The translations under genes were made by a program, and so were the position numbers. Below, one piece after another: positions 44,051-51,942 of a stretch of 64,000 nt of DNA. The notes under the pieces are model-generated. The model searched no databases, had not been told where the DNA came from, and worked only from the letters and a program-made list of their open reading frames with translations. The first letter of the stretch is position 1. Every line of letters begins with the position of its first letter. The stretch is from Escherichia coli (GTDB lineage Bacteria; Pseudomonadota; Gammaproteobacteria; Enterobacterales; Enterobacteriaceae). The DNA is taken from the NCBI RefSeq assembly GCF_048403405.1, contig NZ_CP183129.1, one strand, 5' to 3'.

Positions 44051-44076
44051 TTAAAAACAAGGCCGCGAAAGCGGCC
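44051..44076 (-). terminator. Rho-independent terminator ending the cargo operon
   Basis: On the minus strand: hairpin ggccgc-tttc-gcggcc followed by a U-run (plus-strand A5 at 44053-44057). Confidence 0.75.
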
Positions 44077-44090
44077 TGTGACATGTCACG

Positions 44091-44651
44091 CTACATTGAT
44101 ATATGATTCATAAAGTAGCTTAGAGATTTACTTCCCAGAAAAGAAATTTCTTTTCCTGGATATGTCGCAATAATTGAGCATGACTTATCCCCGTTAGAGG
44201 TAACAAATCCTGAATAACCTACTTGTTCTTTACCATTTTGTTGCTTGGCTAAAAAGTAGAGGTAGCTTATCTTTTTGCCCTCTGGGTAAAACTCTGCCAA
44301 ACCAGTATCGGTGATTGAATATTTTATTCTCCCGCCTTGAGTAACGTTTTCCATCTCAAGTTTAGCTATGTCTTTTCTGTTGTATTCAGCATTGATTTTC
44401 CTTTCGAAATCAATGTTGTTTTCAAATGAGTAGGAAGCAACAGTCTGAATAGATGGGAACACGTTTATCTGGATGCCTCCACAGTCGGCACAGGTATAAA
44501 GGTATGAATCAGATGGAATCCCCATAAAAGAAAACTGAGTTACCTTAAATTTATCGCTATCTCCAAAGTATTGAAGTTCGCATTTAACATTTTGCCCTGC
44601 AAAAGAAAATGCAGACATCAATATTGAAACAAAAAATATAATTGCCTTCAT
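44091..44651 (-). CDS. Secreted/periplasmic protein of unknown function (Sec signal peptide, five Cys)
   Basis: 186 aa, N-terminal MKAIIFFVSILMSAFSFA; low GC; start 2 nt after the stop of the upstream 850-aa gene. Confidence 0.7.
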   Translation of the reverse strand: MKAIIFFVSILMSAFSFAGQNVKCELQYFGDSDKFKVTQFSFMGIPSDSYLYTCADCGGIQINVFPSIQTVASYSFENNIDFERKINAEYNRKDIAKLEMENVTQGGRIKYSITDTGLAEFYPEGKKISYLYFLAKQQNGKEQVGYSGFVTSNGDKSCSIIATYPGKEISFLGSKSLSYFMNHISM

Positions 44652-44653
44652 TA

Positions 44654-47206
44654 TTATTTACCTAGCATGAACTGCGATGGTGGGATCAGAAAGTCGTTAC
44701 CCTGCTCACGCTCAACACGGCGCTGATAACGCTCAAGAGAGCCTGGGTCAAGGGCATCTTGTATCCTGTTCAATATTAAACCATTCATCGCCGTACGAAG
44801 CCAGAACACGTTGAGGAATGGCGTATTGTCAAGTGCCGTGCGATACCAGTCACCCAAATCTGCATCCCCTCTCGTGGTCTGCTGGAGCAGCGTGATAATG
44901 CTGTCAGCGTTCGATGCTGCCGGTCCCATTAGCGACGTAACCGGCCCGGCCCCCATGCGGTTGACCTCGCCAAACATGAAGTCACCCAAGATGCCAAGAC
45001 CGCCCCCCTGAGATGCGGCTGCGAGAAACGTCTTGGCATCTGCCGGGCGTGGTGTTTGCCCTTTCAGCATGAGTTTTGACTGCATGGAGATATAACCAAA
45101 CATAGTCGCCCAGACAAAGAGGTTTGCAGCACCAAGGAAAGCCCCCTTCCCGTTACGTAGCAGCGCATTCGTCAGCGATCCGGTTTTCGACTCACCAAGC
45201 CCAGCAGGAATATAACCACGCCCGAATACTTCGCGTCCTAGTACGTTCTGCATGAAGCTTGCAGTGAACGATTTGTATTGACCAGCGAATCGTATTGCTT
45301 CCCCAGCCACCGTTCCTGGCACCGTGCCCATCTTCATAAACGCCTGCGTGCGATCGCCAGGCTCTGACATGGCGATATTCAGGCGGTCAAGGATGTAGCC
45401 GCGCAACTGCCCTTCCAATTGATCGCGTGCGTCAGCGATAGCGCGCTGCGTTGGCTTGATCCCCTTACTCTCTACATAACCGGCAATCACTTCGTCAGGC
45501 ACGCCGCGGATGCCGCTGGTCGTCATGAACTTACGACCTTCGCTATCGGCCATGTCCATGTTGCGAAAAATTTCCCACTCACGTTCGCCAATACCGTGCA
45601 GATCCAGCACGCGTCGCAGGTCTTCCGGTAGCCGCGCATGAGGCTGGTCAGCATTCTTTGCAAGCCAGTTGGTTATCATCATGGCGTTGCTGTTGCGACC
45701 GCTCTCGGTCCAGAAGTTCATGAGGTTGTACTTAAAGAAAAGCTGCTGCGCGCGACCAAGTTTTCCATTCAGCGTGTCATCACCAGATATGCGCCGGATG
45801 ATTTCCTGCGTCATGGAGTCGGAATAAACTCCGATAGAGGAAAGGATCTCTTTCTGCTCCGCGCTGTTGTAACGCGTGAAGCGGCCTCTCATAGCACCAA
45901 GCAACGCCTGCATAAAATTCTGCCCTTGGTAGCGCATCTCGGTAGCGGCGATAGGCACGTCGTTAAACGATGAGATTACCGCGCCACCAAGCTGGCTCAT
46001 ACGCAACCAGCCGCGTACAGCCGCCGACGCATTGGCCCAGCCTACGCTGCCAGGAATATTTAGCGAGCCGTCAACCTGCGGCATTACGGTACGGTTAATG
46101 CGACGCACCTTCGTCATGTAGTCAGCCAACGCTGCCGGTCTTCCGGATTTGCTGATATCTTCAGCAATGGTGTCCGTCAGGTACTTAAACATGTTCTGTG
46201 GGTTAGTGCCCAGTACGCGCATCATGCCCGTTGTGCGGGCAGCGCTGTTTAAGCCACCAAACAGCGCCTCTCGCAGGCTGCCAGTGCCGAATTGCTGGTT
46301 GTACTCGTGCCACGAGATACCATCTTTGAAGTGCAAAATTCGCTCTTGGCTGGCGCGTTTAGCTGCGTTCGCCGATCCCTTAAAGCCATTCATCCAATCT
46401 GGCTTTTCAGATGTAAGATGCACGCCGGAAGCCAGCCCGTTATAAATGTTACGCATGAACTGCTCGCGGTCAGCCACGCCGTCAAAAGTGCGCTCATCAA
46501 GGCGCGGGAGAATAGCATTTCGCCATGCTTCATAACCTGCGGCGCGGATCTTCATGATGTCGTGTGACTGGCGCACTATATAGCCCGGCTCTTTGCGTAT
46601 CCATGCCCCGGCGCGGTTCTCATCAATGCGCGCAGTTTCCTGCCATTTCATGATGATTTGTGCAGCGCTTACGGATTGCTTTGTCATACCGTCAGTTGAC
46701 TGCCCGCGCCCTATGCGCCACATTGCATCGGCAATTTCCCTGTCATTGCTGCCGCTGGCGATGAATTGCACCAGCCCGGCACGGTCAAAATCGTAGTTGA
46801 TACCGGAATGATACTTGCCGTGCAGTTGCGCCACCTCCGAAGATACCGACCGGCGGGCGCCGGTACGCGCATCGTTGCGGCCAACCAGCATTGCTTCAAG
46901 CCCGATATCCGGGCGGTCTTTCCAGATAGTACGAAGCTCTCTAAGTCGTTGTGCGGCAATACGGGTGTTGATTGCCTTATTGCGAGCCTCAATCTGTTTT
47001 GCCAGCATATCGGCATTGCTCAGTTCTTCCGCTGCGCGCATCGCGGCCTCTTCCAGAGACAGCGCCTCATTGGTCGCCAGAATTCGCCTAGTGGTGTCGT
47101 TCATGTCACGCACCAGCGACTCCATCTCATCGGAAGAAAGCTCGCGACCAGCGGCAGCATTTACACTGCGCTCGCACTGCGTCAAAAATTCGTTTGCTGC
47201 CATCAC
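44654..47206 (-). CDS. Large protein of unknown function (850 aa), third gene of cargo operon
   Basis: Long uninterrupted ORF; start overlaps the upstream gene stop by 4 nt; no ATPase or nuclease motif visible; has a hydrophobic stretch. Confidence 0.75.
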   Translation of the reverse strand: MMAANEFLTQCERSVNAAAGRELSSDEMESLVRDMNDTTRRILATNEALSLEEAAMRAAEELSNADMLAKQIEARNKAINTRIAAQRLRELRTIWKDRPDIGLEAMLVGRNDARTGARRSVSSEVAQLHGKYHSGINYDFDRAGLVQFIASGSNDREIADAMWRIGRGQSTDGMTKQSVSAAQIIMKWQETARIDENRAGAWIRKEPGYIVRQSHDIMKIRAAGYEAWRNAILPRLDERTFDGVADREQFMRNIYNGLASGVHLTSEKPDWMNGFKGSANAAKRASQERILHFKDGISWHEYNQQFGTGSLREALFGGLNSAARTTGMMRVLGTNPQNMFKYLTDTIAEDISKSGRPAALADYMTKVRRINRTVMPQVDGSLNIPGSVGWANASAAVRGWLRMSQLGGAVISSFNDVPIAATEMRYQGQNFMQALLGAMRGRFTRYNSAEQKEILSSIGVYSDSMTQEIIRRISGDDTLNGKLGRAQQLFFKYNLMNFWTESGRNSNAMMITNWLAKNADQPHARLPEDLRRVLDLHGIGEREWEIFRNMDMADSEGRKFMTTSGIRGVPDEVIAGYVESKGIKPTQRAIADARDQLEGQLRGYILDRLNIAMSEPGDRTQAFMKMGTVPGTVAGEAIRFAGQYKSFTASFMQNVLGREVFGRGYIPAGLGESKTGSLTNALLRNGKGAFLGAANLFVWATMFGYISMQSKLMLKGQTPRPADAKTFLAAASQGGGLGILGDFMFGEVNRMGAGPVTSLMGPAASNADSIITLLQQTTRGDADLGDWYRTALDNTPFLNVFWLRTAMNGLILNRIQDALDPGSLERYQRRVEREQGNDFLIPPSQFMLGK

Positions 47207-51523: not shown

Positions 51524-51619
51524 TAGTAACCTCCTATTTTGAATCGGGAGTCAGAATTCATAAAACCTGAGTTAGATAACATTGGCGTCCCTCTGCTTTG
51601 ATGCTGTACCAGCGATTCA

Positions 51620-51826
51620 TTACTCACCCCCCGATGCAAAACCATTCTGATTAAGCCAGGCGTTTACGGCATGTCTGACAATCTGCGCCACGCCTGGTAA
51701 TGGCTGATCAGGGTGATTGTTCACATGGTCGATTCTGTACTGCTTAATGCGCATCACGGTCTGTGCATCCAGATGAACGGAACCACCTCTGACATCGCCT
51801 GTGTTCAGGTCGTTAATACAATTCAC
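51620..51826 (-). CDS. Small protein (68 aa), possible DNA-binding regulator upstream of the cargo operon
   Basis: ORF only; C-terminal helix-like AQIVRHAVNAWL; function is inferred from position. Confidence 0.4.
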   Translation of the reverse strand: MNCINDLNTGDVRGGSVHLDAQTVMRIKQYRIDHVNNHPDQPLPGVAQIVRHAVNAWLNQNGFASGGE

Positions 51827-51918
51827 AGCAATTTCCTCTTACTGACTAAACTATGCACATTATTGATCTGAAAAAGTGGTAGATAAACATATTTCTATCA
51901 CAAAAACAGATTGATTGA

Positions 51919-51942
51919 TTTCAGCCCCAAAAAAAGCCGGAT
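51919..51942 (-). terminator. Rho-independent terminator separating the replication module from the cargo operon
   Basis: Minus-strand hairpin agccgg-agcaat-ccggct followed by U7 (plus-strand A7 at 51919-51925). Confidence 0.75.

Follow-up and report, generated by a model that had tools for sequence, protein, structure and literature searches.

An exchangeable podovirus ejection-protein cassette in a candidate satellite of the phage-inducible chromosomal island type in Escherichia coli

Introduction

The stretch of Escherichia coli DNA analysed here (64,000 nucleotides of contig NZ_CP183129.1, called the window; positions are counted from its first letter) contains an integrative element, referred to as the island, which raises a simple question: why should a mobile element without capsid genes carry an operon for three very large proteins? 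Five co-oriented open reading frames (ORFs) of 68, 873, 565, 850 and 186 aa sit between two hairpin/U-tract terminators on the minus strand. A sequence-only reading had regarded them as a self-contained cargo operon and had offered two explanations, either podovirus internal-virion or ejection proteins kept by a satellite-like element, or an envelope-acting module directed against phages or competitors. The first explanation is borne out by 99% identity to genes of a complete prophage and by a backbone of the type found in phage-inducible chromosomal islands (PICIs) and capsid-forming PICIs (cfPICIs). Of several possible interpretations we favour, with some confidence, one that takes the block for the ejectosome module of an epsilon15/phiV10-type podophage, kept between terminators as an insulated operon in a PICI-type satellite that would thus supply its own ejection proteins.

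Results and Discussion

The large proteins belong to a Uetakevirus ejection module

Positions 44016-51534 of the window are 99.07% identical to positions 19467-26985 of prophage L006 of E. coli GPEC128-620 (NZ_CM160072.1). This is a complete prophage of the epsilon15/phiV10 type (Uetakevirus), in which the genes for the 873, 565, 850 and 186 aa proteins form the end of the virion operon, following in order those for terminase, portal, capsid, cement, tail and a "virion core protein, T7 gp14 family". As the block is 99% identical to the end of this virion operon and comes right after the gene of the T7 gp14 family, it is concluded that it codes for podovirus ejection proteins. Homology over the full length, synteny after the gp14-family core gene and a peptidoglycan-cleaving domain in one member were all found, and by these marks the three large proteins (genes 1 to 3, collectively the triad) are Uetakevirus ejection (internal core) proteins, equivalent to p18-p20 of phiV10. 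We are highly confident of the identity and context of these genes.

The phage counterparts (phiV10 p18-p20, epsilon15 gp15-gp17) are encoded by the same genes in the same order, also with a muralytic domain in gene 1, and are functional analogues of gp15/gp16 of T7 and gp20/gp16 of P22. Virion proteomics has been reported for epsilon15 gp15-gp17. A review counts epsilon15 as one of the podoviruses that possess an internal core stack together with an ejection operon like gp14/15/16 (PMC8954989). In the phages these genes are part of the virion operon, whereas in the island they are detached from every other virion gene, are preceded by a gene and bounded by terminators of their own, and belong to a non-phage replicon.

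Each of the five proteins of the unit has a full-length match in a PHROG family. Gene 1, the positional equivalent of phiV10 p18 and epsilon15 gp15, corresponds to phrog_1044 (E = 3e-281), and the lytic-transglycosylase-like motif noticed earlier proved to be an Slt70-type lytic transglycosylase (SLT) domain at aa 257-371 (50411-50755; NCBIfam, and Slt70 structures with E = 2e-13). With the SLT protein of Stenotrophomonas phage BUCT708 it shares 36% identity. Gene 2 corresponds to phrog_3003 (E = 8e-282) and only weakly matches phrog_342, an "internal virion protein" that has an endolysin domain; its homologue in Pelagibacter phage HTVC035P is likewise annotated as "internal virion protein". 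Gene 3 falls within phrog_684, annotated as "virion structural protein" (E = 6e-271), and has homologues in 120 phage records by tblastn, including epsilon15, phiV10, Vibrio phage VP2 and Pelagibacter phages. In the complete podophages BUCT708 and Pseudomonas Ab31, homologues of genes 2 and 3 are adjacent and come right after a gene with an SLT domain. Only the SLT domain matched solved structures, and genes 2 and 3 had no relatives in the PDB by sequence. Hydrophobic stretches had been suspected in the middle two proteins, but no strongly hydrophobic 19-residue segment occurs in any of the three large ones.

The 186-aa protein has a signal-like hydrophobic N-terminus, as had been proposed, but four cysteines instead of five. 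It is annotated identically (WP_000643933.1) in the complete prophage and in the island. Its gene is an operon-end gene travelling with this cassette, one of the variable small genes of the Uetakevirus virion operon; in other cassette types, unrelated small ORFs of 98-113 aa are found at this position.

The block (at least 80% coverage) is present in 60 of 5,426 complete E. coli genomes, mostly in prophages, and in two of these it is located in the island. Outside the cassette, blastn and tblastx comparison of the island with phiV10 and two prophages revealed no nucleotide or translated similarity except for an integrase of about 30% identity. One explanation of the locus would be that it is the degraded remnant of a Uetakevirus prophage left after deletions. 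Although the cassette genes are of prophage origin, we find this hardly credible and already contradicted by the data: there is no Uetakevirus similarity outside the cassette other than the integrase and there are no capsid, portal, terminase, tail or lysis genes, so the island is not a decayed prophage; its backbone is of the PICI/cfPICI type, and the 19-kb layout is found at three different sites, having reached a secondary one only recently. It had been anticipated that homologues confined to intact prophages would reduce the block to such a remnant. The genes do occur in complete prophages, but they also travel with integrase/primase islands, being intact in about 45 that lack a capsid gene.

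Cassettes are exchanged between two conserved joints

Island copies differ in the type of triad that they carry. In type A, found in the window, genes of 873, 565 and 850 aa are followed by the 186-aa gene. Type B, apparently the most frequent, has genes of 843, 686 and 918 aa with small ORFs, and type C has genes of 837, 600 and 824 aa with a 98-aa ORF. Type C is 95.5% identical to phiV10, the similarity starting exactly at the p18 start codon. In a further variant (L031, 10304-13108), a gene 1 of 935 aa is joined to genes 2 and 3 of type C. In all three types gene 3 is a member of phrog_684, and genes 1 and 2 fall into differing PHROGs; gene 1 of types B and C matches transglycosylase PHROGs, the domain being at a position equivalent to that in type A.

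The similarity between types is concentrated in two joints (Table 1). The right joint is 99.7% identical in type B islands, 93% in phiV10 and 99% in prophage L006, and homology begins 11 nt before the ATG of gene 1. The left joint is 97-99% identical in type B and C islands and 96.7% in phiV10, and the left arm of the island beyond it shows 97-99% conservation between the three types. As read from these alignments, triads have been exchanged, in at least three types, by recombination at the two conserved joints. A late promoter or a pac region held in common with Uetakevirus was considered and rejected, as the similarity stops at the joints.

The 68-aa protein does not differ between islands of types A and B (100% identity), and its gene is a backbone gene located outside the exchanged cassette. 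The protein has no Pfam match; to us its sequence gives the impression of a ribbon-helix-helix protein. A relationship to the p06 protein of phiV10, also of 68 aa and encoded upstream of the portal gene, was rejected because there is no homology.

The triad is a constant and selected part of the island

About 45 complete E. coli genomes carry a near-identical backbone. The triad is present in every near-identical copy examined, at three sites (dinD/yicC, tRNA-Gly and cvrA/dadX) and with at least two different integrases. The exact 68-aa protein occurs in 1,939 blocks of public assemblies, and among the matches listed its gene is followed by the triad, complete or nearly so, in all eight places. 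In one of these places gene 3 is split, and in another gene 1 was not called (L030, 10304-13111). As the triad is constant, with conserved backbone on both sides and only its type exchanged, it is a module of the island and not cargo as originally described.

In comparisons of island with island, dN/dS ranges from 0.02 to 0.20, apart from one low-count comparison, and the ORFs are intact in the copies compared; values between island and prophage are about 0.11-0.22. The island copies of the triad are under purifying selection. Among the 5,426 genomes no prophage has a copy closer to type B than 79% DNA identity, and this speaks for a long stay of type B in the island lineage.

These observations bear on the possibility that the block is an inert hitch-hiker, a captured fragment of a late operon that is maintained solely by recombination with resident prophages at the terminator and at the 5' end of gene 1. 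Such a process would agree with the rarity of the type A block in the island (two genomes, against the 60 that have it anywhere), with occasional decay (L029 and L031) and with the existence of close backbone relatives that have no such module, for example in E. coli 042. We nevertheless consider it quite improbable. An inert fragment would not be expected in every near-identical copy at three sites and beside different integrases, nor would about 7.3 kb of ORF be expected to stay intact at such low dN/dS, and type B, apparently the commonest, has no close prophage copy.

Organisation of the cassette unit

All five genes are located on the minus strand as first described, and the junctions of the large genes, for which coupling had been proposed, are tight. 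Genes 1 and 2 are separated by 1 nt (...GATAACATGCC), genes 2 and 3 overlap (...GGGGGATGTGATGGC), and gene 3 is separated from the 186-aa gene by 2 nt (...AAATAATAATGAAG); an AGGAGG lies 8 nt 5' of the ATG of gene 1. Gene 3 has 850 aa when read from a GTG, while RefSeq starts it at the ATG at 47203 (849 aa). The downstream terminator is a stem with T-run, as had been stated. The upstream one, which is absent from the list produced by a consensus terminator scan, is real but had been placed at 51919-51942, about 10 nt from its actual position. It ends the unit of a PerC-like gene and insulates the cassette operon. This PerC-family regulator gene (51959-52184, minus strand), which directly precedes the cassette unit, carries a frameshift in the RefSeq annotation of each island copy examined; the conservation of this frameshift suggests either a real alternative product or a common ancestral lesion.

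Table 1. Positions of the cassette genes, joints, signals and backbone features in the window
Feature	Position	Strand	Remarks
Whole integrative element, 19,028 bp	42757-61784		PICI-type satellite candidate
Distal iteron cluster	43230-43381		left arm beyond cassette; 5 x GCGGGTTA, mirror-image 2 + 3, 21-bp spacing
Left joint, 78-bp terminator region	44016-44092		contains stem 44060-44077; common to islands and phiV10-like phages
Downstream terminator	44077-44050	-	stem 44077-44060 and T-run; -16.5 kcal/mol, z = -3.0
186-aa signal-peptide protein gene	44651-44091	-	phrog_11983; operon end
Gene 3, 850 aa	47206-44654	-	third ejection protein; phrog_684 match
Gene 2, 565 aa	48900-47203	-	middle ejection protein; full-length phrog_3003 match
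Gene 1, 873 aa	51523-48902	-	full-length phrog_1044 match; SLT domain
Right joint	51105-51534	-	ribosome-binding site and first ~140 codons of gene 1; protein nearly invariant across types and phiV10-like phages
68-aa gene	51826-51620	-	GTG start; first gene of unit; phrog_4934
Upstream terminator	51952-51929	-	AGCCGGA-GCAA-TCCGGCT then T6; -16.3 kcal/mol, z = -2.4
P1-type pac-like element	52441-52592	-	inside 138-aa ORF 52193-52609
Proximal iteron cluster	53610-53732		between SSB and primase genes; 4 direct and 2 inverted GCGGGTTA; putative origin
DUF927 primase/helicase, 708 aa	53757-55883	-	phrog_1139 DNA primase, E = 2e-174
AlpA-family regulator, 72 aa	58974-59192	-	Pfam PF05930, i-E = 6.9e-6
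Tyrosine integrase, 422 aa	60311-61579	-	RefSeq annotation of 99.9%-identical island; NCBIfam integrase domain

The host element is a recently moved island with a PICI-type backbone

The element is 99.88% identical to an island located between dinD and yicC in E. coli Z1323CEC0012. In the window it is inserted between cvrA and dadX, into the 3' end of a gene for a leucine-rich repeat (LRR) protein (41412-42758), the last 30 codons of which have been removed. The interrupted gene is a natural E. coli gene with SlrP/SspH2-like LRRs and no NEL domain. An att core of 8 bp (ATTCTGAA) is common to the junctions in the window and the usual yicC site. Comparison with an empty site gives attB as CAACATTCTGAACATG; attL (42754-42763) lacks 2 bp, and attR is at 61777-61784. 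Judged from these junctions the island has moved recently, and it looks as though its integrase has carried it to a secondary att site, the usual one being dinD/yicC. An artificial insertion of the island in the window was also considered and rejected, as the junctions fit integrase recombination at an 8-bp yicC-like core. There are no tRNA genes in the window, so that a tRNA target does not exist there.

From the integrase end, the gene order is integrase, 216-aa ORF, AlpA, the antirepressors Rha and AntA, small divergent genes, an Icd-like gene, DUF4222, the DUF927 primase, iterons, SSB, ProQ/FinO, the 138-aa ORF, the PerC-like gene, the 68-aa gene, the cassette, and finally a conserved left arm of 1.3 kb with a second iteron cluster. 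The 8-mer GCGGGTTA occurs 13 times in the window where 1.8 copies are expected, and 11 of the 13 fall into the two clusters of the island, which probably represent the replication origin and a second cis site. Their separation is reminiscent of ori and crr of P4. A search with Rfam at E <= 0.1 over 42000-62500, in which c4/CI RNA of the P1/P4 type was considered, returned no RNA elements. A mechanically called ORF of 345 aa (56435-57472, minus strand) is annotated in RefSeq only as a 111-aa Icd-like protein at its 3' end; it is probably spurious because its upstream part overlaps two small divergent YlcI/YnfO-like genes.

In agreement with the earlier reading, no capsid, portal, terminase, tail or lysis genes are found in the element, according to the RefSeq annotation of a 99.9%-identical copy. 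Integrase and AlpA lie together at one end, and the element has its own primase with adjoining iterons as putative origin, both of which correspond to a PICI. Its size is 19.0 kb. The presence of three virion components breaks, in the letter, the rule that PICIs are small and have no structural genes, because ejection proteins are part of the virion; the rule is likewise broken in the cfPICIs and in the PICI EcCIMP1 discussed below. Classification as a cfPICI fails, since capsid, prohead protease, portal, connectors, TerS and TerL are all missing from 42757-61784, and classification as a Uetakevirus prophage fails as the similarity does not extend beyond the ejection genes, the integrase of about 30% identity excepted. 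From its gene content, the element is quite likely a satellite.

A packaging-like signal of P1 type

The 138-aa ORF corresponds to a fragment of PacA (equivalent to aa 68-127) fused to an Ant-like segment, and contains a pac-like element with 83% DNA identity to pacA of a P1-like phage, its core being 83-88% identical. The conserved core is flanked by two plus two Dam hexamers (TGATCA/G), where P1 has four plus three; the organisation of P1 pac has been described (PMC10028697). This hexamer cluster is unique within the window, is 98-100% conserved in all islands as part of the pac-like element, and has no counterpart in Uetakevirus terS genes. The TerL protein of phiV10 is only 25% identical to PacB of P1. 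The element could serve P1-like phages as a site of packaging, or it could act as a decoy.

Related elements carry other virion genes in the equivalent position

The closest backbones are those of cfPICIs, a category recognised by SatelliteFinder (bioRxiv 10.1101/2022.09.14.508007; PMC10085698), which have a module of virion genes in the slot after ProQ, as does the island. An element of E. coli EC416 (L015; NZ_AP027404.1, 3464130-3490944) resembles the island in primase (89% identity), SSB (94%), Icd (94%) and ProQ (71%), and in the slot after ProQ it has genes for major capsid protein, HK97 protease, portal, connector, HNH, TerS and TerL. In this layout it resembles a capsid-forming PICI. 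It is integrated inside the gene for the terminase large subunit of a resident prophage, which is split by it. A scan for the primase with one genome per species found seven elements, of which three (Winslowiella and two Pantoea) have a capsid/packaging module and four do not. The relative in E. coli 042 is a minimal one that ends at PerC. While cfPICIs encode capsid, protease, portal, connectors, HNH, TerS and TerL and need only tails from a helper, the island has ejection proteins only. Having no capsid, portal, TerS or TerL, it would need the capsid, tail and terminase of its helper.

A second relative has been studied experimentally. EcCIMP1 is a PICI of 19,963 bp in E. coli MP1 (Pick, Stadel and Raivio, ISME J 2025, PMC11773190). 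It excises only when the P22-like podophage Kapi1 is present and is transduced by this helper; lysogens gain additional superinfection immunity to Kapi1 from it, and none of the known defence systems was detected. Its authors mention hypothetical "DNA transfer-like" proteins with a possible role in packaging; an exchange of cassettes is not described (PMC11773190). Like the island, it has Int, AlpA, AntA, DUF4222, an Icd-like gene, DUF927 primase and PerC within about 20 kb and is without capsid and lysis genes; the primases are 62% and the AntA proteins 60% identical. It differs in its helper, which is P22-like Kapi1 and not a Uetakevirus, and in the lack of SSB, ProQ and the pac-like segment. 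We find that the genes after its primase (L016; NZ_CP139039.1, 3570480-3575826) are an ejection set of P22 type, composed of DUF2824 (gp14-like), a 225-aa protein (gp7-like), a 439-aa "phage DNA ejection protein" (gp20-like) and a 906-aa lytic transglycosylase (gp16-like), the last being 46-52% identical to the HK620 gene 16 product and to an ejection protein of epsilon34. This set has no BLAST similarity to the island triad. By gene content, two related satellite lineages hold non-homologous podovirus ejection sets in an equivalent slot, and such an independent acquisition again speaks against the inert hitch-hiking considered above. A literature search for satellites with ejection or internal virion proteins gave nothing direct, and EcCIMP1 surfaced by way of the cfPICI literature.

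The resemblance to P4 is more distant. P4 is an integrative satellite with a primase-helicase and an Icd-like region, but its helper is the myovirus P2 and not a podovirus, and when the island ORFs of at least 60 aa were scanned against PHROG and NCBIfam, no homologues of sid, psu, delta, epsilon or alpha were found.

A possible function at the step of DNA entry

Under the interpretation that we favour, induction of or infection by a helper of Uetakevirus type would cause the island to excise by means of Int and AlpA and to start replication at its iterons, using the primase and SSB that it encodes. Evidence for such a response to a helper is indirect, consisting of the recent integration at a secondary att site and the experimental precedent of EcCIMP1. 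The island would then express the triad, which would enter the procapsids built by the helper via the near-invariant N-terminal ~140 residues of gene 1, the helper supplying the gp14-like core protein alongside. At the next cell the triad would be ejected, its SLT domain opening the peptidoglycan and the other two proteins building a conduit for DNA. The particles would thus carry an ejectosome of the satellite's type, and swapping of cassettes would retune this type. We hold the packaged role of the ejectosome only tentatively, at a little less than an even chance.

Several observations weigh against this interpretation. Some copies have decayed; in one, gene 3 is split into ORFs of 412 and 509 aa (L029, 14895-17652). 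The island has no similarity to any Uetakevirus terS/pac region, and its only pac-like element is of P1 type. Having neither a gp14-like nor a p16 core gene, it cannot build an ejectosome alone. It is also uncertain what the satellite would gain, because its type A copy is almost identical to the phage's own genes. Finally, co-occurrence was examined with a chimeric query of backbone and Uetakevirus portal: among about 45 island genomes there were 12 with a single match, and at least 12 of these island-bearing E. coli genomes show no Uetakevirus portal, while the count of "places" is confounded by other DUF927 islands so that no enrichment is computable.

A different function would be interference or superinfection exclusion, where the triad, perhaps with the 186-aa protein, jams the entry conduit of a Uetakevirus at the envelope, or mismatched core proteins contaminate its progeny virions, so that the host cell is protected or the phage is harmed. 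EcCIMP1 with its analogous ejection module provides immunity against its helper without a known defence system (PMC11773190), but nothing ties this immunity to its ejection genes. In P22, the type of ejection protein determines sensitivity to the entry-blocking SieA, so that the entry step at the envelope is a real battleground (PMC10461980). The separate terminators and upstream region of the cassette unit speak for such a function, as does the type difference in strain GPEC128-620, where the island triad is of type B and that of the resident prophage is of type A. However, types A and C are 95-99% identical to functional phage genes, have low dN/dS and show no sign of dominant-negative remodelling, and the three large proteins have no signal peptide or strong membrane segment that would place them in the envelope on their own. 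The earlier impression that no named defence system fits is confirmed by PADLOC, where the five proteins of the cassette unit and two of the backbone matched no model at E <= 0.01. On balance we consider interference somewhat unlikely.

Returning to the packaged ejectosome, one extension deserves mention even though we judge it unlikely. It builds on the dependence of SieA sensitivity on the type of ejection protein in P22 (PMC10461980). The ejectosome might act as an exchangeable "entry serotype", by which particles bypass the superinfection exclusion of helper lysogens through a type unlike that of the resident helper, the N-terminus of gene 1 keeping each cassette compatible with any Uetakevirus capsid. 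If so, the cells reached in this way, helper lysogens, would be those that the satellite most needs to reach. E. coli GPEC128-620 holds both a complete Uetakevirus prophage with a type A triad and an island with a type B triad, although this is a single case.

We would classify the element as a PICI-type satellite whose ejection-protein cassette is exchangeable, and EcCIMP1 is a published and functionally unexplained parallel to it. The strategies known from satellites are to remodel capsids or replace them, to redirect packaging, or to steal tails; to our knowledge, no satellite has yet been demonstrated to supply its own machinery for DNA ejection. The occurrence of unrelated ejection sets in one slot, kept intact and swapped, points to a selected function at the step of DNA entry. 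In podoviruses this step is poorly understood and is a target of superinfection exclusion. Natural strains that contain the island together with a helper-type prophage, and in which the two triads can be distinguished, make the system directly testable in E. coli, and a function of this kind could account for the unexplained immunity phenotype of EcCIMP1. Even if the function were nil, the locus would still be a clean case of cassette exchange between phage and satellite. If the idea of an entry serotype is true, the parallel P22-type set in EcCIMP1 would imply a general strategy of satellites, complementary to that of the capsid-forming PICIs.

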